A DNA stretch of 64,000 bases from Alphaproteobacteria bacterium (GCA_025210155.1 JAOASE010000003.1:11519-75518), one strand, 5' to 3'; positions 18,794-54,984 are shown, counted from the first letter of the stretch. Program-made: numbers and translations. Notes: a model not told the origin generated them from the letters alone.

Positions 18794-20329
18794 ATGAAAA
18801 AAATACCAGAAATAAACTCAAACTTAATAAATAGAGATACTCTAATTAAAGAATATAAAAAGGCAAAAAACAAAAGAAGCAATTGGGAAAATCTTTGGGA
18901 AGATTGCATAAAATATTCATCCCCAGAAAGATATGGAAGCTTCTATAACTCATTCCAAGAAGCTAATAAAAACAATGTAGATATCTACGACTCAACTGCA
19001 ATTTGCGGGGTAGAAAATTTAGTATCTACAATAGCTTCAAGCCTAACACCATCATATGAAAAATGGTTTAATTTATCTCTAGGAAATATCACTGTTGAGG
19101 ATGAAACAACAAAAGCAAATATTGAAAAAGATATAGAGAAAATAGAAAAAACAATTTCAGAAAATATCTCACTTTCAAACTTCGCGACAGAAATACAACA
19201 ATGTTACTTTGATCTAGTTACATTGGGAACCTCTTGTCTGTTCTTCGAAGAAAACCAAATAGGTAAAAAATCTGCCTTCAGGTTTAAATCAGTTCCATTA
19301 AACCAACTGACTATAGATGAAGACAGCGAAGGTAACGTAAATAAAATCTATAGAGAAACAAGCATAACGGTAGAAAATCTACAACTTCGTTTCCCAGAAT
19401 TTTTTGAAGAAAATGGTTTAAGTAACCTCGCAACAAAGTTCAAAGAAGAGCGAGTTAAACTGATTGAAGCTGTAGTCCCTAATATGAAAGAAATAGGACA
19501 GCAAGGCTTTGTATATACAGCATTTATAGAAGATGAAAAAAATATCCTTACACCTAAAAAATCAGCAAAAGAAGATAACATATTAGTATTAAAAGAAGGT
19601 GTCTTACAAAGCTCTCCATTCATTTGTTTCAGATGGTTAAAAACCTCAAGCGAAGTATATGGAAGATCACCGGTAATGAAGGTTCTTCCAGATATCAAAA
19701 CAGCAAACAAGGTTGTAGAACTAACTTTACAAAACGCAACAATAGCAATCTCAGGAGTATGGCAAGCTGAAGACGACGGAGTAATTAACTTTAATAATAT
19801 TGATCTGTCACCAGGTTCAATAATACCAAAAGCAATAGGCTCTCAAGGTCTATCACCATTACAAACAGGAGCTAACTTCAACGTTTCACAACTAGTCCTT
19901 TCAGACTTAAGAAACAATATAAATAAAGCGTTCTATACAGATGTTCTAGGTAAGCCGGAAGAAAGCAAACAAATGACTGCAACAGAAGTTTCTGCAAGAA
20001 CAATGGAATTATATCAAACACTTACAGCAGTGTTCTCACGACTTCAAACGGAACTCCTTACACCATTAATCGAAAGAGCAGTAAGCATCCTTAAAAGAAG
20101 AGGGGAGATAGCAAACCTAATCATAGATGGAAATATAATCTCATTAAAATACAGTTCACCAATAATGAACGTAAACAACGACAGAGAAATAGCAAACATC
20201 CAAAGATTTATATCTTCACTAAGCATTCTAGGAGAAGGTCAATTATCCAACATAATAGATACACAAAAGTTAATAAACCACCTAGCAGAAATCACATCCA
20301 TCCCAAAAGGATTGCTAAAAACAGCCTAG
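18794..20329 (+). CDS. Portal (head-to-tail connector) protein, T7 gp8-like
   Basis: 511 aa (T7 gp8 is 536 aa). The N-terminal YKKAKNKRSNWENLWEDCIKYSSP...IYDSTAICGVENLVSTIASSLTPSYEKW parallels gp8 RLKNDRAPYETRAQNCAQYTIP...WQAVGARGLNNLASKLMLALFPMQTW. Confidence 0.7.
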   Translation: MKKIPEINSNLINRDTLIKEYKKAKNKRSNWENLWEDCIKYSSPERYGSFYNSFQEANKNNVDIYDSTAICGVENLVSTIASSLTPSYEKWFNLSLGNITVEDETTKANIEKDIEKIEKTISENISLSNFATEIQQCYFDLVTLGTSCLFFEENQIGKKSAFRFKSVPLNQLTIDEDSEGNVNKIYRETSITVENLQLRFPEFFEENGLSNLATKFKEERVKLIEAVVPNMKEIGQQGFVYTAFIEDEKNILTPKKSAKEDNILVLKEGVLQSSPFICFRWLKTSSEVYGRSPVMKVLPDIKTANKVVELTLQNATIAISGVWQAEDDGVINFNNIDLSPGSIIPKAIGSQGLSPLQTGANFNVSQLVLSDLRNNINKAFYTDVLGKPEESKQMTATEVSARTMELYQTLTAVFSRLQTELLTPLIERAVSILKRRGEIANLIIDGNIISLKYSSPIMNVNNDREIANIQRFISSLSILGEGQLSNIIDTQKLINHLAEITSIPKGLLKTA

Positions 20330-47148: not shown

Positions 47149-47439
47149 TTAGGCTGACATTGCAGAAGAGTTTATTTTTAATTCGCTAACTTTTAATAAT
47201 ATATCCTTAGCATATAACTCCAACTTTTCTCCATCAGGAAAAATAACCTTAGCGGTTTTATCCGAAAAGAAAGAATTCAGCATATTTGAAAACGTTCCCT
47301 CAATTTTCCTTATTTGAGATTTTTTATTATTCCCATTATAACTAAGGGCATAAGCCAAGCTTCCTTTTTCAGTGTTGGAATAATAAAATTTTATATTAAA
47401 GTCTTCACTTTCTTGCTCTGTTTTTTTATTCTTGCACAT
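47149..47439 (-). CDS. Hypothetical protein, tandem paralog (96 aa)
   Basis: …SQIRKIEGTFSNMLNSFFSDKTAKVIFPDGE… is paralogous to the next ORF. Confidence 0.45.
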   Translation of the reverse strand: MCKNKKTEQESEDFNIKFYYSNTEKGSLAYALSYNGNNKKSQIRKIEGTFSNMLNSFFSDKTAKVIFPDGEKLELYAKDILLKVSELKINSSAMSA

Positions 47440-47456
47440 TCTAGATAAGTATTTGA

Positions 47457-47807
47457 TTAAAACATCCTGTTTCTCCTAGATCTTCTTCTAGAAGTTTTTT
47501 TGTCGTTACTATTTTGTTTGCTTAAAGCATTTTTCTTTCTTACTTCACGTCTTTTAAAGTATATAGCTTTATCTATAACTTCTTTAGCTGTAAGAAGTTG
47601 AATAGTATCCTTATTAGGAAGTATTACTCTAGCTTCTTTATCAGAAAAAAGTCTATAGATCTTCTCTGAAAATACTCCTTCAACTTTTCTCAATTGAAGT
47701 TTCCTGAAACCATCATGCTCATCTAAAGTATACATGAGTGTCCAGTTATCAGTGAAATAGAGTTTTAAATCAAACTCATCGTCTATTTCAATGTTTTTGT
47801 TTTTCAT
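47457..47807 (-). CDS. Hypothetical protein, tandem paralog with a basic C-terminal tail (116 aa)
   Basis: …LQLRKVEGVFSEKIYRLFSDKEARVILPNKD… plus a C-terminal KKTSRRRSRRNRMF. Confidence 0.45.
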   Translation of the reverse strand: MKNKNIEIDDEFDLKLYFTDNWTLMYTLDEHDGFRKLQLRKVEGVFSEKIYRLFSDKEARVILPNKDTIQLLTAKEVIDKAIYFKRREVRKKNALSKQNSNDKKTSRRRSRRNRMF

Positions 47808-48041: not shown

Positions 48042-48374
48042 CTAGTTTACCTTAACTTTTTTAACTTTGGTCTCCTTATTAAAGAATGTAAGGCAGATCA
48101 AAATACCTATTAAAGATGTACCCGCAGGAATTGCAGTGTTAATAAATTCTTTAAAGTATCCTCCTGTAAACATATAGAAGTATATAACGGTATTTACAGC
48201 CATATTAATAGTAACGGCCTTATCCAATCTTTCAGATTTCTTAAACTTACCCATAGCAGTAAGCAAGAATATAGGAGCAAATATATAAACTATACTAGTA
48301 ACTGAAAATACGAATTGAAGTACATCTCCAATAAATAGAGCTGCGATACTTCCAAAAGTAAGAGCGCCAGCCAT
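48042..48374 (-). CDS. Membrane protein, probable C-terminal piece of a split sodium:solute symporter
   Basis: Three hydrophobic helices. Begins 24 nt downstream of the stop of 48399..49427 on the same strand. Confidence 0.4.
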   Translation of the reverse strand: MAGALTFGSIAALFIGDVLQFVFSVTSIVYIFAPIFLLTAMGKFKKSERLDKAVTINMAVNTVIYFYMFTGGYFKEFINTAIPAGTSLIGILICLTFFNKETKVKKVKVN

Positions 48375-48398
48375 TATATACCTAGAAAATTTAATATA

Positions 48399-49427
48399 TT
48401 ATTTTTTATGTTTTTTAACATCATACTTAGTAAAGTCTTCAAGGTAAGTAGATGATAATAAGTAAGTATATGTATCCAAAGTAGACATAGTTATAGAAAT
48501 AATAACAATCGCTATATAAGCAAGAACAGCTACAGGAATTTCTGGACTTTTAAATAATAAGAAAAGTACATCATCAGAGTTAGTAGTAGTAACAAAATTT
48601 CTAGCACCCATTCCCAACCACATTAAACTCAATGTCATTATAAAAAGAAATATAGGAAACATAGAAATACTTTTCACAATAGTTTTCCCATCTTTTGCTG
48701 AGAAAATTCTTTGCCATATATCTGCGCCAGCAAGCATATACATAACACCTATAATTAATATAGCTATATTATTTTCAGTTCCCATTGCAAATACAGTAGA
48801 TAAATCTTTCATGTCTACTAATTTAGGCTGAATGAATAAAGGAATAAATATCAGCGATAATATAATAAAGAATTGTAAAGTATCTGTCTTAATCACAGCT
48901 TTGTATCCACCACTCATTAAATACATAGCAACAACTAATGCTGAGAATAAAATTCCAAACACTGGAGCTATATCAGCTATTTTAGAAATAAGATTACCGG
49001 CAACAAAAAGCTGCATAGCAATAACTAGAGTAGAGAATAGTATAATTATAAAAGATATATATTTAGCAGTTCTGCTTCCAATAAAATGCCTAACCATTTG
49101 TCCAATAGTAATGCAACTATTCTTAGCGGCAAGATCTCTCATCCTAGGACCATATAATCCTAATAATATTGTTCCAATAGTAAGTCCCAATATCAACCAA
49201 AGTATTCCAGCATAACCAAGTAAGAAACCCAATCCTACCCATACGACAATTCCAGCCCCATCTCTAAGCCCAGAAGCAATAGAAGCTACTGTAGGAATTA
49301 TACCTACCTTACGACTTCCAATTACAAAGTCATCTTCAGTTTCATGTTTTTTAGTTGAGTATGCTATCCAAAGCATCATTAAAAAATATATTCCGATCCC
49401 CATCAGAACAGCAGATTGTAAAGACAT
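48399..49427 (-). CDS. Sodium:solute symporter family (SSF) transporter, N-terminal ~340 aa
   Basis: DFVIGSRKVGIIPTVASIASGLRDGAGIVVWVGLG resembles the SSF N-terminal signature (GGR.lg....alS..At..Sa....G). 342 aa is short for this family. Confidence 0.55.
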   Translation of the reverse strand: MSLQSAVLMGIGIYFLMMLWIAYSTKKHETEDDFVIGSRKVGIIPTVASIASGLRDGAGIVVWVGLGFLLGYAGILWLILGLTIGTILLGLYGPRMRDLAAKNSCITIGQMVRHFIGSRTAKYISFIIILFSTLVIAMQLFVAGNLISKIADIAPVFGILFSALVVAMYLMSGGYKAVIKTDTLQFFIILSLIFIPLFIQPKLVDMKDLSTVFAMGTENNIAILIIGVMYMLAGADIWQRIFSAKDGKTIVKSISMFPIFLFIMTLSLMWLGMGARNFVTTTNSDDVLFLLFKSPEIPVAVLAYIAIVIISITMSTLDTYTYLLSSTYLEDFTKYDVKKHKK

Positions 49428-49603
49428 AATAACCCCCTTTTTTTATGTTACATAAAAAGCTTAATACAATCTAAAATTTAATACAAGAAAAACATGAAAT
49501 ATTGTTTGAAGAAAATAAATAAATATTCTTATTGACTCGAATCGATTCTTATTTTAATATTTAAATAAATATTGAAATGTTAAAATGAAACACGGAGGTA
49601 AAA

Positions 49604-49903
49604 TTGGATATTAAAACATCAGTTAAAGCATTTTCTGCATTAGCCCAAGATACCAGATTAGAAATAGTAAGGTTATTGGAGGAACACAATTCTGAAGGTC
49701 TTTGTCCTTGCAATATATTGGAGAAAATTGATTTAACAAACGCAAACTTATCATTCCACCTAAAAGAATTAGAAAACGCTGGTTTGGTAAGAAAAGAAAA
49801 AAAAGGTAAATTCGTTCACTATTATGCTGAATGTGAGTTCATCAGAGAGCTTGGAAACTTTCTATTAGGCAAATGCGAATTTACAAAAACAAAAAGCAAA
49901 TAA
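49604..49903 (+). CDS. ArsR/SmtB-family transcriptional regulator
   Basis: ALAQDTRLEIVRLL wHTH start. LCPCNI metal/oxidant-sensing Cys pair. 99 aa. Confidence 0.8.
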   Translation: MDIKTSVKAFSALAQDTRLEIVRLLEEHNSEGLCPCNILEKIDLTNANLSFHLKELENAGLVRKEKKGKFVHYYAECEFIRELGNFLLGKCEFTKTKSK

Positions 49904-49923
49904 TAAAGTAGGGGGATAGAGCC

Positions 49924-50367
49924 ATGTTAAAGAAAACTATGTTAATTGCGGTTTCAAGTTTAGTATTGCTAACAGCATGTAAACAAGAAACTAAAAAGTC
50001 AGCAACTGCTGAACAAATAAAACAAGAGATTGTTAAAAACAACTCCCTTAATAAATCTACAATTTATTACTTCCACGGAAACAAGAGATGTCAAACTTGT
50101 CAAAAAATAGAGGCGTATACTCAAGAAGTTTTTGATAACGAATTTAGAGATACTCTTGATATGAAGTTAATAAATCTAGATGCTCCAGAAAACAGACACT
50201 TTATAGAGAAGTACAATTTATATAGCAGGTCTGTTGTCTTAGCAAAAGCTGAGAATGGACAAGAAGTAGATTTTAGAAATCTTGATAAAGTTTGGGTCAA
50301 AGCAGGTGACAAACAAGATTTTCAAAACTACATAACAACAGAGGTGAAAAGCTTCTTATTTAACTAA
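49924..50367 (+). CDS. Thioredoxin-fold CxxC lipoprotein
   Basis: Lipobox LLTAC and IYYFHGNKRCQTCQK (Trx-like F....CxxC). Confidence 0.45.
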   Translation: MLKKTMLIAVSSLVLLTACKQETKKSATAEQIKQEIVKNNSLNKSTIYYFHGNKRCQTCQKIEAYTQEVFDNEFRDTLDMKLINLDAPENRHFIEKYNLYSRSVVLAKAENGQEVDFRNLDKVWVKAGDKQDFQNYITTEVKSFLFN

Positions 50368-50383
50368 ATCGTAGGAAAAGGAT

Positions 50384-50764
50384 ATGTACAAAATACTAGC
50401 ACTAGCTGGTATAGTCATCCTTGGATTTGCAATGAAAATCTTTAATAAAGATTACAGTGGAAATAAAAACCTAAAGGTTTACCACTTCTATCATAATCCC
50501 TATGGCTATACTTGCTCAGAAGCAGAAAGATGTATTAAAGAAATAGTAAAGGAATCAGATAAAGATCTTACCTTCTCATCTATAAATACATCAGAGGATA
50601 ATAAAGACTACATAGATGGATATCATCCAACCCAAAAAGAAGTAGTTATTTATAATCCTAACACAGAAGAATATAAAGTTTCATCTATCAGAAATCTAAT
50701 CAAAAGAGGTGCAACTGATAGTGAAGTAAAGCAACAATTCACAAAAGAATTAGATTCTATATAA
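50384..50764 (+). CDS. Membrane-anchored thioredoxin-fold-like protein, paralog of the preceding ORF
   Basis: N-terminal TM. VYHFYHNPYGYTCSEAERC aligns with IYYFHGNKRCQTCQK. Similar downstream pattern. Confidence 0.4.
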   Translation: MYKILALAGIVILGFAMKIFNKDYSGNKNLKVYHFYHNPYGYTCSEAERCIKEIVKESDKDLTFSSINTSEDNKDYIDGYHPTQKEVVIYNPNTEEYKVSSIRNLIKRGATDSEVKQQFTKELDSI

Positions 50765-50777
50765 GAAGGAGGAAAAA

Positions 50778-52415
50778 ATGATAATAGAACTATTTTTAGC
50801 ATCGCTATGGCTTGGAATATTGACATCAATAAGTCCATGCCCTCTAACGACAAACATCGCCGCGGTATCATACGTTGGACAAAAGGTTAGTAAACCATCC
50901 CACGTATTATTATCAGGTCTGTTTTATACTTTAGGAAGAGCATTCTTATATACAGTATTAGGATTTGCTTTATCACTAAGTGTAAGCTCAATACCAGTAG
51001 TTTCACAATTTTTACAAAGTCAGCTAGCTTACATAGCAGGACCATTACTTATAGCTATTGGTTTAATGATGCTAGGTGTGATAAAAGTAAAACTACCTAA
51101 ATTTCAAATAAAAGAGAAGTCTCAAGAGAACCTACAAAAGAAAGGTTTGCTAGGATCATTTTCACTGGGCGCACTATTTGCCTTGATGCTTTGTCCAGTC
51201 TCAGCTGCATTATTCCTGGGACATCTAGTACAAACACAAGGAAATATTCCAGCATTAATTGTTTACGGTATAGGTACAGGTATTCCAGTTATCATATTAT
51301 CATTCGTAATCGCCTTTAGTGTAAAGAATGTATCTAAAGTATATAACAAACTTGCTACTTTCGAAAAGTGGGCTAGAAGAATTACGGGCGTATTATTTAT
51401 GTTTGCAGGATATCACTACTTAGCACCAATGATTAATATAAACCTTAATATATTATCATTGTTCACGCTATTAGCAGATTACTTAGCATATGATCTACTT
51501 AATCTAGTGCCAGGATCTCACTTTGGTCATGCCGTTCACTTCTTCATAGAAGACGTTACTAAAATCCTATTCTTACTTACGGTAATGATAACAATAATAT
51601 CATTCTTTAGATCTCATCTTAAACCAGAAAAGATTAGAGAATACCTAGAGGGTAAACCAAAATGGATGGCATATATAATGTCCGTAGGTTTAGGAGCCGT
51701 AACACCATTTTGCTCATGCTCATCAATTCCATTGTTCATTGGCTTTGTAGAGGCAGGTATCCCATTTGGTGTAACAATGGCATTCTTGATAACATCTCCA
51801 ATGATTAACGAAATCGCCATAGCAGTCTTAGCATCCATAATAGGTTGGAAAATAGCGGTGGTATATGTCCTTACAGGAATGGGAGTTGGTATCATCGGTG
51901 GACTATTAATGGAAAAATTAGGCTTTGCAAAGTACGTAGAAGAATATGTATACAATATCAAAATGGGTAAAAACAATGTTGTAGAAGAAAAGATTTCAGG
52001 ATTTAAAGAAAGACTTTCATACGCATTCGAATACGCAAAAGATATGCTTAAAAAGATATGGCTATATATAGTTATAGGTATTGGAATAGGGGCCGCAATA
52101 CATGGTTTCGTTCCACAAGAATTCTTCGCAAAGTATGCAAGTGCGGATAATCTGTTCGCAGTACCTCTAGCAGTAATTCTAGGTATTCCTCTATACTCAG
52201 ATGCAACAGGAGTAATACCTATCGCAGAATCTTTGTTAGGTAAGGGCGTGCCAATTGGAACTGTACTAGCCATGATGATGAGTGTGGTTGCAGTATCACT
52301 ACCAGAAATGATTATCTTAAGAAAGGTGCTTAAACCAAGACTTATAGCATACTTCGCAACATTCCTATTAATAGCATTTATATTTGTAGGATACCTATAT
52401 AACGCAATATTTTAA
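50778..52415 (+). CDS. Fusion protein: CcdA/DsbD-like thiol-disulfide transporter domain (N) plus ArsP/DUF318-family permease (C)
   Basis: N-terminal ISPCPLTT (TM1 Cys) and LMLCPVSAA (TM4 Cys), as in CcdA. C-terminal half has TPFCSCSSIPLF, the conserved TPFCSCS motif of ArsP/DUF318 permeases. 545 aa. Confidence 0.65.
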   Translation: MIIELFLASLWLGILTSISPCPLTTNIAAVSYVGQKVSKPSHVLLSGLFYTLGRAFLYTVLGFALSLSVSSIPVVSQFLQSQLAYIAGPLLIAIGLMMLGVIKVKLPKFQIKEKSQENLQKKGLLGSFSLGALFALMLCPVSAALFLGHLVQTQGNIPALIVYGIGTGIPVIILSFVIAFSVKNVSKVYNKLATFEKWARRITGVLFMFAGYHYLAPMININLNILSLFTLLADYLAYDLLNLVPGSHFGHAVHFFIEDVTKILFLLTVMITIISFFRSHLKPEKIREYLEGKPKWMAYIMSVGLGAVTPFCSCSSIPLFIGFVEAGIPFGVTMAFLITSPMINEIAIAVLASIIGWKIAVVYVLTGMGVGIIGGLLMEKLGFAKYVEEYVYNIKMGKNNVVEEKISGFKERLSYAFEYAKDMLKKIWLYIVIGIGIGAAIHGFVPQEFFAKYASADNLFAVPLAVILGIPLYSDATGVIPIAESLLGKGVPIGTVLAMMMSVVAVSLPEMIILRKVLKPRLIAYFATFLLIAFIFVGYLYNAIF

Positions 52416-52444
52416 TTAACAATAAACCAGGGAGGTAACTTAAA

Positions 52445-52684
52445 ATGAAAAACATAAAAGTACTAGGAGCAGAAATGTGCTCAAGCTGTTCAAACTTAAA
52501 AGACCATATTGAAAAGTTTGTTAAAGACAATAACGTAGAAGCTACAGTTGAAAAGATCACTGATATAGCAGTAGTAATGAGCTACGGAGTAATGTCTGCT
52601 CCTGCCGTTGTAGTGGATGAAGAAGTTAAGTGCTTCGGAAGAAGTCCAAGTGACGATGAGCTTAAAGAATGGATACTAAAGTAA
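52445..52684 (+). CDS. Redox-active disulfide protein 2 (small thioredoxin-family protein)
   Basis: 79 aa. KVLGAEMCSSCSNL CxxC near the N-terminus and C-terminal ...KCFGRSPSDDELKEWI. The classic genomic partner of DUF318 permeases and ArsR. Terminator at about 52715-52750. Confidence 0.65.
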   Translation: MKNIKVLGAEMCSSCSNLKDHIEKFVKDNNVEATVEKITDIAVVMSYGVMSAPAVVVDEEVKCFGRSPSDDELKEWILK

Positions 52685-53075
52685 AATAAGTTTCCATAAT
52701 TTAAGAGCATAAAAAAAGGTCTTTTATACTTTTGTAAAAGACCTTTCTTAAAGTATTCAATGGCTAGAAAGAAAACTCAATTTCATTTATAACAAAATCA
52801 ATCCCTTCTAAAAAGGTGGATCCGAATAATCTTTATTAAACGGATCCACCCACTTTTAACCAAACCTAACCCTGTTTTGTTATATATTTTTATAAATAAT
52901 TTCGAATTTAAATTTTCAATTGGAAGCCCTCCTAAGAAGGCCCCCAGTTGAGAAAAAATTTCGTTGCTTGTGCCACCAAGCTCCTTTATAAGTAATCAGT
53001 GAAGTCTATCTTATTAGATTCTTTTCCTAAGTCAACAAAAAAATAAAACCTCCATATTTCAGACATATAGAGATT

Positions 53076-53592: not shown

Positions 53593-54252
53593 TCAATTTG
53601 AACTGGTAAAATAGTTCAATAGATGGTTAATCTTTTCCTGTGCGGATTTAAGATTTTCCATACCTTCTTCAGAAAGTTCATTATGCCTTGCTGCGATGCT
53701 AAGTTTTATACCTTCATACTGAAGATCCAAAAGCTCCATGAAGGTTTCTTCATTACCTGAATCAGCCGCAATAAGTGTCTCATTTAAATTCTGAATTTTT
53801 TCAATCCAATCTTCAGTTTTCATGAAGTCAAATTTCGGTTCAAGCATACTTCGTAATGTTTTAAAAAGATCTTCAACTTCTTTATGGTTATTTTTATTAG
53901 TACCACATTTGATGCTATCTTTCATACTTAGGATTACCTGGTACAAGAATAATTCTTCAACTTCCATTAAGCCGACTTTTTCTTTATGAAACTTCAGCCA
54001 TTGATCAAATGTCTCAAATACGAAAGGCTTCTTAATATAACAGCTTTTTAAGCAAAGAAATCCATTCTTAAAAAATATACCAATTCCTTTTAATTCACAG
54101 TGATGATATGGTTTAACAAATTGAGCTTTTTCAATGAGCCCATCATCATTTCTAGAGATAGAGAGCCACAGCAAGTGATCAAAATCATAGCGTTCTTCAG
54201 CAAAATATTTTTTACCACCTCTAGTATGAGCAATTAAATAACTTCTACGCAT
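53593..54252 (-). CDS. Hypothetical protein, tandem paralog (219 aa)
   Basis: KGIGIFFKNGFL...FETFDQWLKF aligns with KSVGIYLKDGKLHY...FESYDEWAEI of the next ORF. Own terminator downstream. Confidence 0.45.
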   Translation of the reverse strand: MRRSYLIAHTRGGKKYFAEERYDFDHLLWLSISRNDDGLIEKAQFVKPYHHCELKGIGIFFKNGFLCLKSCYIKKPFVFETFDQWLKFHKEKVGLMEVEELFLYQVILSMKDSIKCGTNKNNHKEVEDLFKTLRSMLEPKFDFMKTEDWIEKIQNLNETLIAADSGNEETFMELLDLQYEGIKLSIAARHNELSEEGMENLKSAQEKINHLLNYFTSSN

Positions 54253-54375
54253 GTTAAAAAAGGTTTAAATTATACAATATTGACAATAACTTAAAATAAA
54301 ATATTAATTTTGTCAAGAATATATAAAAAACGCCCATGCTGTATATACAACACGGGCGAAAAAATAGTCAAAATT

Positions 54376-54984
54376 TTACAGTCGTTCTTTTAGGTAATCC
54401 TCCAGTTTCTTTAGTCTAAACTCAAGGTCCTCTCCATCTTCCCCTTTATTGGCAACTTTTTGAATATTTCTCCCTATAGAAATTAATCTAGCTAGGTAAA
54501 CAATATCAAGTTCGCCATTTTCGTCACGAGGAATGGATGATGTATCTGCTTCTTTCATATATTTATCAAAGAAGTTTAATCTCATCCTATCATCGAAATA
54601 CTCAAGAGCTTTTCTAAGAAATAGTTCGGGATTCTTCAATCCAACCATTTTCTTACTCTCAGCGAAAGCGGTGTGCAGTAGGGCTTCTTCTGAATGGTAT
54701 TCAAAAGTCTTAGGCTTATTAATTTCGGCCCATTCGTCGTAAGACTCAAATTCCCTATCATCTGCCGGGGAGGTTAGTGCATAATGAAGCTTCCCATCTT
54801 TAAGGTAAATTCCAACAGATTTATTGCTAATTGTATCATTAGCTTTATAAAACCTAGCAGAAATCATTTTTCCTTCAGGATTGTAATAAGCTTCATAAGC
54901 AATTACTCCAAAGAAGTTATGTCGAACTTCCCTAAGAACATTTTCGCCATTTTCATCTAGCGAAAACAAACTAAACTTTTCCAT
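54376..54984 (-). CDS. Hypothetical protein, tandem paralog (202 aa)
   Basis: See the previous entry. Terminator at about 54330-54365. Confidence 0.45.
   Translation of the reverse strand: MEKFSLFSLDENGENVLREVRHNFFGVIAYEAYYNPEGKMISARFYKANDTISNKSVGIYLKDGKLHYALTSPADDREFESYDEWAEINKPKTFEYHSEEALLHTAFAESKKMVGLKNPELFLRKALEYFDDRMRLNFFDKYMKEADTSSIPRDENGELDIVYLARLISIGRNIQKVANKGEDGEDLEFRLKKLEDYLKERL

Follow-up and report, generated by a model that had tools for sequence, protein, structure and literature searches.

An ArsG::ArsP fusion within an ArsR-controlled ars operon: a recurrent covalent join, a probable role in organoarsenical export and a possible cysteine relay across the membrane

The subject of this report is a five-gene operon found in a 64,000-nucleotide (nt) stretch of DNA, here called the window, from an Alphaproteobacteria bacterium (GCA_025210155.1 JAOASE010000003.1:11519-75518); all coordinates are window positions. 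The operon comprises five co-directional open reading frames (ORFs) on the plus strand, 49604-52684, in the order arsR-arsF-arsF'-arsG::arsP-arsE, and its fourth gene encodes a single chain of 545 amino acids (aa) in which a CcdA/DsbD-like membrane domain, ArsG, is joined covalently to an ArsP-type permease. The best overall explanation, to which a probability of about 0.6 is given, is an ArsR-repressed operon of organoarsenical export with a cysteine relay, ArsE-ArsG-ArsF, working alongside ArsP. The parts of this reading do not carry equal weight: the identity of the operon and its role in arsenic metabolism are held with high confidence, and for the cysteine relay the odds are even. What was observed directly, and what the reading draws on, is the identity of the domains, the invariance of the cysteines, the export signals, the synteny, the repeated occurrence of the fusion and a conserved palindrome upstream. 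It must be said that the cassette, its components, their clustering and the idea of a CcdA-like function are already known or annotated, and the system as such is not new. What is new is the covalent ArsG::ArsP join, no description of which was found in the literature searched, and an extra degenerate ArsF-like gene, likewise undescribed there. A first-pass annotation of this DNA, which had not recognised a fusion with exported thioredoxin-like partners as described, was thus right about the join itself and missed the ArsEFG module, its curated models and the widespread unfused cassette. The five ORFs were all recovered on the plus strand where that annotation had placed them and in the order it had given. 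The features are as follows.

49532-49560, plus strand: promoter-like site TTGACT-17-TAATAT upstream of arsR, from a consensus scan, assigned by its position only
49556-49573, no strand: perfect palindrome AATATTTA-aa-TAAATATT, overlapping the -10 hexamer; candidate ArsR operator
49604-49903, plus strand: arsR, ArsR/SmtB metalloregulator with a GLCPC metalloid-site motif, 99 aa, TTG start (HTH_5, NF033788)
49924-50367, plus strand: arsF (ORF2), exported thioredoxin-fold lipoprotein with CQTC, 147 aa (NF040494)
50384-50764, plus strand: arsF' (ORF3), degenerate membrane-anchored arsF paralogue, 126 aa (NF040494 below cutoff, BLASTP)
50778-52415, plus strand: arsG::arsP fusion (ORF4), 545 aa
50778-51443, plus strand: ArsG domain, fusion residues 1-222, CcdA/DsbD_2-like with six helices, Cys21 and Cys139 (NF040495, DsbD_2, DsbD_TM)
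51450-52415, plus strand: ArsP domain, fusion residues 225-545, ArsP_1 permease with TPFCSCS, Cys312/Cys314 (PF03773)
52445-52684, plus strand: arsE (ORF5), small thioredoxin-like protein of the cytoplasm with CSSC, lacking a signal peptide, 79 aa (TIGR00412, Thioredoxin_3)
52715-52746, plus strand: terminator-like hairpin, predicted 14-bp stem of -15.1 kcal/mol followed by UUUCUU (ViennaRNA fold)

The N-terminal half of the fusion is DsbD/CcdA-like by homology and is not CcdA proper. It matches the curated ArsG model NF040495 with 238.5 bits against a cutoff of 200 (residues 6-216, model positions 7-222 of 225), and its first 222 residues, scanned alone against Pfam, match DsbD_2 with 59.0 bits (threshold 24.9) and DsbD_TM with 46.4 bits (threshold 27.1). 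When the whole protein of 545 aa was run through hmmscan against Pfam (E<=0.1), ArsP_1 was the only family reported, and neither DsbD_2 nor DsbD_TM appeared; a routine full-length Pfam scan would overlook the N-terminal domain of the fusion. DsbD_2 was matched by 34 of 35 ArsG-family sequences, these being the window N-terminal domain and 34 stand-alone homologues. The ArsG family profile has CcdA 5VKV as its sole sequence match in PDB (E 0.0055), and the same structure was the top Foldseek match in PDB for the AlphaFold model (probability 1.00, TM-score 0.49, E 0.14). Aligned by hhalign, the first half of the domain matches the second with E 1.2e-4, which sets SISPCPL opposite MLCPVS and Cys21 opposite Cys139, and in the AlphaFold model of the 545-aa fusion (mean predicted local distance difference test, pLDDT, 85.7) the helices break at these two residues. 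The three motifs singled out in the first-pass annotation, SISPCPL (Cys21), MLCPVS (Cys139) and TPFCSCS (Cys312/314), are all present. They hold the only four cysteines of the fusion, all of them invariant in 21 fusion homologues, and both ArsG cysteines are also invariant in the 35 ArsG sequences. In common with Thermus CcdA (5VKV) and with DsbD, the ArsG half has six helices, two internal repeats and one essential-looking cysteine in the first helix of each repeat, as well as one cytoplasmic and one exported thioredoxin-fold partner. In contrast to them it has no cytochrome c maturation link, its second motif reads CP and not PC, and the likeness is remote in sequence and structure. Genes of cytochrome c maturation or of Dsb isomerase partners were not found adjoining arsG in any locus examined, where the partners were always ArsF, ArsE, ArsP and ArsR.

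The C-terminal half is an ArsP/DUF318 permease, as had been proposed. Pfam ArsP_1 (PF03773) matches residues 248-542 with 242.9 bits over profile positions 1-293 of 294, and the domain is 60-74% identical to stand-alone ArsP proteins of 321 aa. TPFCSCS is invariant in the 21 fusions. By analogy with its homologues, this half most likely exports trivalent organoarsenicals through Cys312/Cys314. The vicinal cysteine pair of Campylobacter jejuni ArsP is reportedly its site for methylarsenite, MAs(III). That protein is reportedly (Chen et al. 2015) a methylarsenite/roxarsone(III) efflux permease. A full-length ArsP_1 domain, an invariant vicinal cysteine pair, a place in an ars operon and the usual small thioredoxin-like gene after it are shared by the C. 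jejuni protein and the present one, whereas here the six-helix ArsG domain precedes the permease in the same chain; the likeness is drawn from these features. According to PMC6205960, export of MAs(III) and of roxarsone(III), Rox(III), by ArsP has been demonstrated by experiment.

It could be argued that two separate genes had been joined by an assembly error or a frameshift. Such doubts may draw on two observations. A metagenome-assembled genome (MAG) at NCBI holds a member of the 90% cluster of the window protein whose annotation is that of a 318-aa 'permease' and nothing more (MCT4552191.1), and in a related genome (L004, 6001-7588) the fused gene looks disrupted, with a 525-aa ORF and a tblastn match split near residue 476/491. 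Nevertheless, an artefact is in effect ruled out and its probability is negligible: the identical 545-aa protein stands on two contigs from two sources, JGI/IMG and Logan; at least 24 other full-length fused clusters occur among the best 120 homologues, at 42-72% identity; and the same fused gene lies in the same operon in four other genomes. Fifteen of the 24 fused clusters have 540-546 aa and 58-72% identity, the remaining nine have 546-563 aa and 42-45% identity, and sequence conservation is continuous across the ArsG/ArsP junction. Together with the DsbD-family matches this bears out the claim of a genuine covalent fusion, as opposed to extra permease helices or a frameshift. Some assemblies or annotations do break or hide the fusion. 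In three of the four genomes the order is arsR-arsF-arsG::arsP-arsE, and in the remaining one (L003) ACR3 replaces arsE.

The fusion recurs in at least three lineages, which answers the proposed database search for the same architecture. The ArsG half has 64% identity to its nearest unfused relative vs 39-43% to other fused clades, and the ArsP half 74% vs 45-48%; moreover, one fusion (P0038) groups with unfused sequences. Since each half is closer to unfused relatives than to other fused clades, and P0038 stands among the unfused, the sequences indicate that the join, or its reversal, occurred at least three times. In a clade of 561-aa fusions the gene order is arsR-arsE-arsF-fusion. The architecture is nonetheless rare. 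Searches with the ArsG domain and with the full-length protein gave about 7,100-7,800 matches each, and among the best 150 representatives of a library clustered at 50% identity a single one, the fragment P0018, spans the junction, a figure that serves as an indicator of rarity and not as a count.

Two side observations concern relatives carrying the fused gene. One 561-aa fusion (P0070; L013, 254-3452) lies without arsR, arsE and arsF before it, and the genes that precede it encode a thioredoxin of the classical type (PF00085) and an exported protein of 402 aa with CPHC; the fusion may have a different set of partners. The closest fused-operon genomes (L001, L002, L004) are complete MAG chromosomes of 1.55-1.58 Mb labelled 'Candidatus Cloacimonadota' or 'Cloacimonadales', and near-identical and related proteins at NCBI bear Alphaproteobacteria names; one taxonomic label may be wrong.

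The unfused five-gene cassette is widespread. All five components, namely an ArsR-type regulator, an ArsP_1 permease, Thioredoxin_3, ArsF and ArsG, were present in each of the six stand-alone arsG loci sampled, one of them from Fulvitalea, one from Prevotella and four from metagenomes or MAGs of other lineages. ArsF was confirmed by NF040494 in five loci (87-117 bits) and is annotated as ArsF in Fulvitalea and Prevotella. Counted more broadly, arsG stands beside arsF, together with arsE, in an ars operon in the window and in 12 other loci. Plasmid pFA1 of Fulvitalea axinellae has the five components in the order arsR-trx-arsF-arsG-permease, with arsG ending 11 nt upstream of the permease gene; in contrast to the window the genes are separate, and the permease has an extra N-terminal helix of its own. 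Prevotella nigrescens F0103 likewise shares the components as separate genes, within the order wHTH (winged helix-turn-helix)-arsF-arsG-trx-permease-arsC-ACR3. It is proposed that the fusion arose by the joining of two adjacent genes of this cassette. The nearest unfused ArsP relatives carry arsR-arsP-arsE only, without arsFG (L005, L007, L009 and L012), so arsF-arsG has the look of an accessory module attached to a core of ArsP and ArsE.

Other pairs of the same components were also found in one chain. An ArsF::ArsG fusion (P0301, 392 aa; L022, 1195-2373) matches NF040494 with 112 bits and NF040495 with 207 bits and after it come arsR and the genes of an ArsP_1 permease and a Thioredoxin_3 protein, all on a single 4.4-kb contig; in its arrangement the fusion recalls DsbD together with the periplasmic domain of the latter. 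An ArsP::ArsE fusion (P0282, 452 aa, one sequence) carries ArsP_1 and, after a proline-rich linker, a C-terminal ArsE-like domain (TIGR00412, 69 bits).

The thioredoxin-like proteins are predicted to lie on both sides of the membrane. ORF2 exceeds the cutoff of the ArsF model clearly (NF040494, 101 bits against 60) and has a lipobox, LLTAC, and CQTC at residue 56. An N-terminal export signal and a CxxC motif were found in 12 of the 12 ArsF proteins collected, which come from several phyla, and ArsF adjoins ArsG in every locus examined. An AlphaFold model, built on a five-row alignment as the homologue search gave four proteins, shows a βαβαββα thioredoxin fold with a domain pLDDT of about 90 or higher. 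The top 50 Foldseek matches in PDB were nearly all thioredoxins or thioredoxin-fold proteins, and the ArsF family profile matches the active sites of thioredoxin and of protein disulfide oxidoreductase (PDO). The earlier description of ORF2 as a lipoprotein with thioredoxin fold and CxxC was therefore sound. ORF5, described there as redox-active disulfide protein 2, was placed correctly too: it matches TIGR00412 (the MTH895/ArsE family) with 89.3 bits against a cutoff of 62, as well as Thioredoxin_3 and the structure of MTH895 (1ILO, E 5e-8). The CxxC of ArsE is invariant and it has no signal peptide. The case of ORF3 is a mixed one. Its membrane anchor and its paralogy to ORF2 were seen as claimed, yet the paralogy is weak (BLASTP E 1e-4; NF040494 only 34.2 bits, below the cutoff of 60) and the first cysteine of CxxC is lost (YGYTC...C). 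The N-terminal segment is a hydrophobic anchor without a lipobox. Judged by its motif, ORF3 is probably redox-inactive. A counterpart is absent from the four related genomes L001-L004, and the gene is unique to the lineage of the window.

ArsR is, as far as its sequence tells, a repressor of the As(III) type, with a winged helix (HTH_5, E 9e-12; NF033788, 71.5 bits against a cutoff of 55) and a CxC metalloid site of the R773 type. It is 38% identical to R773 ArsR, with LCPC aligned to LCVC, and the metalloid-site cysteine is conserved across the clade. The gaps between the five ORFs amount to 13-29 nt, with a Shine-Dalgarno-like site before each. Because of these small gaps, of the promoter-like site with its palindrome upstream and of the hairpin after the last gene, the five genes look like one operon. 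By the consensus scan, promoter-like sites in this region are no more frequent than in shuffled sequence. The palindrome is conserved in six loci: a related inverted repeat, AATATT...AATATTGAA, precedes arsR in L001-L005 too, likewise at -40 to -48. The hairpin, with its AT-rich stem, was missed by a consensus terminator scan.

These elements also bear on the suggestion that the unit is not arsenic-specific and is a thiol-based oxidant sensor or an efflux unit for Cu, Zn or Hg built on a DUF318-type permease. In favour of this it can be said that ArsR/SmtB regulators respond to many metals and that the ArsP_1 half gives sub-threshold matches to the SaoE and SO_0444 Cu/Zn efflux models. These matches are far under the cutoffs (117 vs 325 and 97 vs 300), the CxC of ArsR falls on the As(III) site of R773 ArsR in the alignment, and the cysteine pair of TPFCSCS is well matched to R-As(III) as a two-coordinate ligand. 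Furthermore, the neighbours of the cassette in relatives are arsC and ACR3 (Prevotella), ACR3 (L003) and LMWPc (L020). A role outside arsenic is accordingly very improbable, and the oxidant-sensing unit offered in the first-pass annotation found no support in view of the ArsR site and these neighbours. In the 64-kb window itself no ArsC or ACR3 gene was found.

For the membrane topology of the fusion we infer the following arrangement. The loops of ArsG rich in lysine and arginine (36-40, 102-122 and 181-200) share one side, which sets the domain N-out and C-out, and the order signal peptide-ArsF-ArsG in P0301 agrees with ArsG being N-out. The ArsP domain would then begin outside. Its own lysine- and arginine-rich loops (279-294, 381-408 and 515-521) are consistent, in the modelled arrangement, with a pair of inverted repeats, in each of which three membrane crossings are combined with a re-entrant element bearing TPFCSCS or the corresponding motif. 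In Fulvitalea and P0282, the stand-alone permease has one more helix at its N-terminal end, following a positively charged N-terminus (N-in). Helix 6 of ArsG may take the place of this extra helix, which would make the join topologically sound. The model would put the C-terminus of ArsP outside the cell, where the ArsE domain of P0282 is also predicted by the positive-inside rule; this conflicts with a cytoplasmic ArsE and makes that domain puzzling.

On substrate, direction of the relay and its cargo we infer a scheme as follows. The operon would be repressed by ArsR and induced by metalloid, and the ArsP half would export trivalent organoarsenicals by means of Cys312/Cys314. Cys21 and Cys139 of ArsG, lying in the middle of the membrane, would form the middle link between the CxxC of cytoplasmic ArsE and the CxxC of exported ArsF. 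The cargo of the relay would most likely be reducing equivalents, in the manner of the path from thioredoxin through CcdA/DsbD to a periplasmic thioredoxin-like protein, and the relay would keep ArsF, and possibly the cysteine pair of ArsP, in the reduced state on the oxidising side of the membrane. A cross-membrane reductant pathway serving the permease cysteines, as suggested in the first-pass annotation, is thus plausible by analogy. Electron transfer had already been proposed for CcdA in ars operons by Castillo and Saier (PMC2963123), who found the same three gene types in ars operons in eight instances in seven organisms; there the gene types were linked to ArsC, and no ArsP fusion was reported.

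A number of points weigh against this scheme. The scheme would need a substrate on which a reduced periplasmic ArsF could act. ArsF has, in the alignment, no cis-proline before strand 3, a residue present in most redox-active thioredoxin-fold proteins. The second cysteine motif of ArsG is (L/F)CP vs TPC in CcdA, with a two-position offset in the profile alignment; the structural likeness to CcdA 5VKV is modest (TM-score 0.49, E 0.14), and the placement of the two fusion domains relative to each other is uncertain in the model (predicted TM-score, pTM, 0.64). The DsbD/LysE superfamily includes true transporters, and the Cad cadmium-transporter family is matched by 16 of the 35 ArsG sequences. 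The names of the NCBIfam models also point elsewhere, as ArsG is called there an efflux permease for aromatic amino-arsenicals and ArsE and ArsF are called nitroreductase subunits.

These names derive, as equivalogs, from the only experimental study, done with Shewanella putrefaciens 200. Its authors, Chen, Zhang and Rosen (2019, Environ Sci Technol 53:6182), are said to have described the ArsEFG of this strain with ArsG as an independent pump and ArsE/ArsF as a nitroreductase. The present operon shares with that system an ArsR-controlled arrangement in which ORF2, the N-terminal half of ORF4 and ORF5 exceed the curated cutoffs of ArsF, ArsG and ArsE; it differs in the fusion of ArsG to ArsP and in the second, degenerate ArsF-like gene. 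Transferred to the window, the published roles would make the ArsG half a second efflux permease, for trivalent aromatic amino-arsenicals, with ArsE and ArsF reducing the nitro group of compounds of the roxarsone or nitarsone type, and the fusion would be two permeases of different substrate range in one chain. Apart from the model names, the transporters of the superfamily and the Cad matches speak for it, as does a passage of PMC9144182 in which, with Chen et al. 2019 as its source, ArsG is listed among efflux transporters and ArsE/ArsF among organoarsenical-resistance proteins. The export signal of ArsF, present in all 12 proteins, and the lack of one in ArsE do not suit it: with the two on different sides, they could make up a soluble enzyme of the cytoplasm only if something connected them through the membrane, and the published nitroreductase and permease roles fit awkwardly with an exported ArsF. 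Neither in ArsE nor in ArsF was a flavin or metal-cofactor domain found in Pfam and NCBIfam scans. ArsG retains the CcdA hallmark of one invariant cysteine per internal repeat, and in the sampled loci it never occurs without an ArsP-type permease, which would be odd for an independent pump. Two pumps in one chain are on balance unlikely, though this is the main rival reading and the published assignment has experiments behind it.

Another possibility concerns not the route of the relay but what travels along it. The cargo could be the trivalent organoarsenical itself, passed by ligand exchange from the CxxC of ArsE to the membrane cysteine pairs of ArsG/ArsP and on to the CxxC of ArsF outside, which would resemble the MerP-MerT-MerA mercury relay reversed, or the hand-off from ArsD to ArsA. 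Exactly one invariant cysteine pair occurs in each of the four proteins or domains, ArsF lacks the cis-proline typical of disulfide oxidoreductases, the pairwise fusions F::G, G::P and P::E all exist, and the reported ArsG efflux would be reconciled with a CcdA fold. ArsE is weakly similar to the ArsD metallochaperone (E 1.3e-3 and 3.5e-4), although below cutoffs. This similarity is thus sub-threshold, the P::E fusion is a single sequence with its ArsE domain predicted outside the cell, and with ArsF as a stoichiometric acceptor in the periplasm some step of release would be required. Transfer of the arsenical by ligand exchange is accordingly seen as quite improbable.

Returning to the electron relay alongside ArsP, a bolder version of it would take ArsE, ArsF, ArsG and ArsP as one trans-envelope cysteine-relay machine, in which ArsG shuttles either electrons or bound R-As(III). 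Such a reading is suggested by the recurring ArsG::ArsP fusions, by the ArsF::ArsG and ArsP::ArsE fusions and by the presence of arsG with an ArsP-type permease in all sampled loci; it is a tentative one, rather doubtful at present, and if true it would revise the published functions of ArsG, ArsE and ArsF. With less commitment, the fusion can be taken as Rosetta-stone evidence: together with the co-occurrence of arsG and ArsP in the sampled loci and the exported ArsF, it suggests that ArsG works physically with ArsP by thiol chemistry across the membrane. It is a tangible argument for examining the published roles of ArsE, ArsF and ArsG anew, and the single-chain ArsG::ArsP would lend itself well to structural studies and transport assays of organoarsenical export.

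The remaining observations concern the surroundings of the operon. Divergent from arsR lies a gene (342 aa; region 48042-49427, minus strand) that matches the sodium:solute symporter family over profile positions 1-331 of 406 only, and after it a hydrophobic ORF of 110 aa (48042-48374); the symporter may be split or frameshifted. Tandem ORF pairs flank the operon, one of 96 and 116 aa (47149-47807, minus strand) and one of 219 and 202 aa (53593-54984, minus strand). By eye the members of each pair resemble paralogues; the larger pair, which was the one scanned, gave no Pfam match. Further upstream, a 511-aa ORF (18794-20329, plus strand) has a full-length match to PF12236, the family of phage portal (head-to-tail connecting) proteins, with E 1.6e-107, and a T7-like prophage or phage-derived region is probably present upstream of the ars operon in the window.

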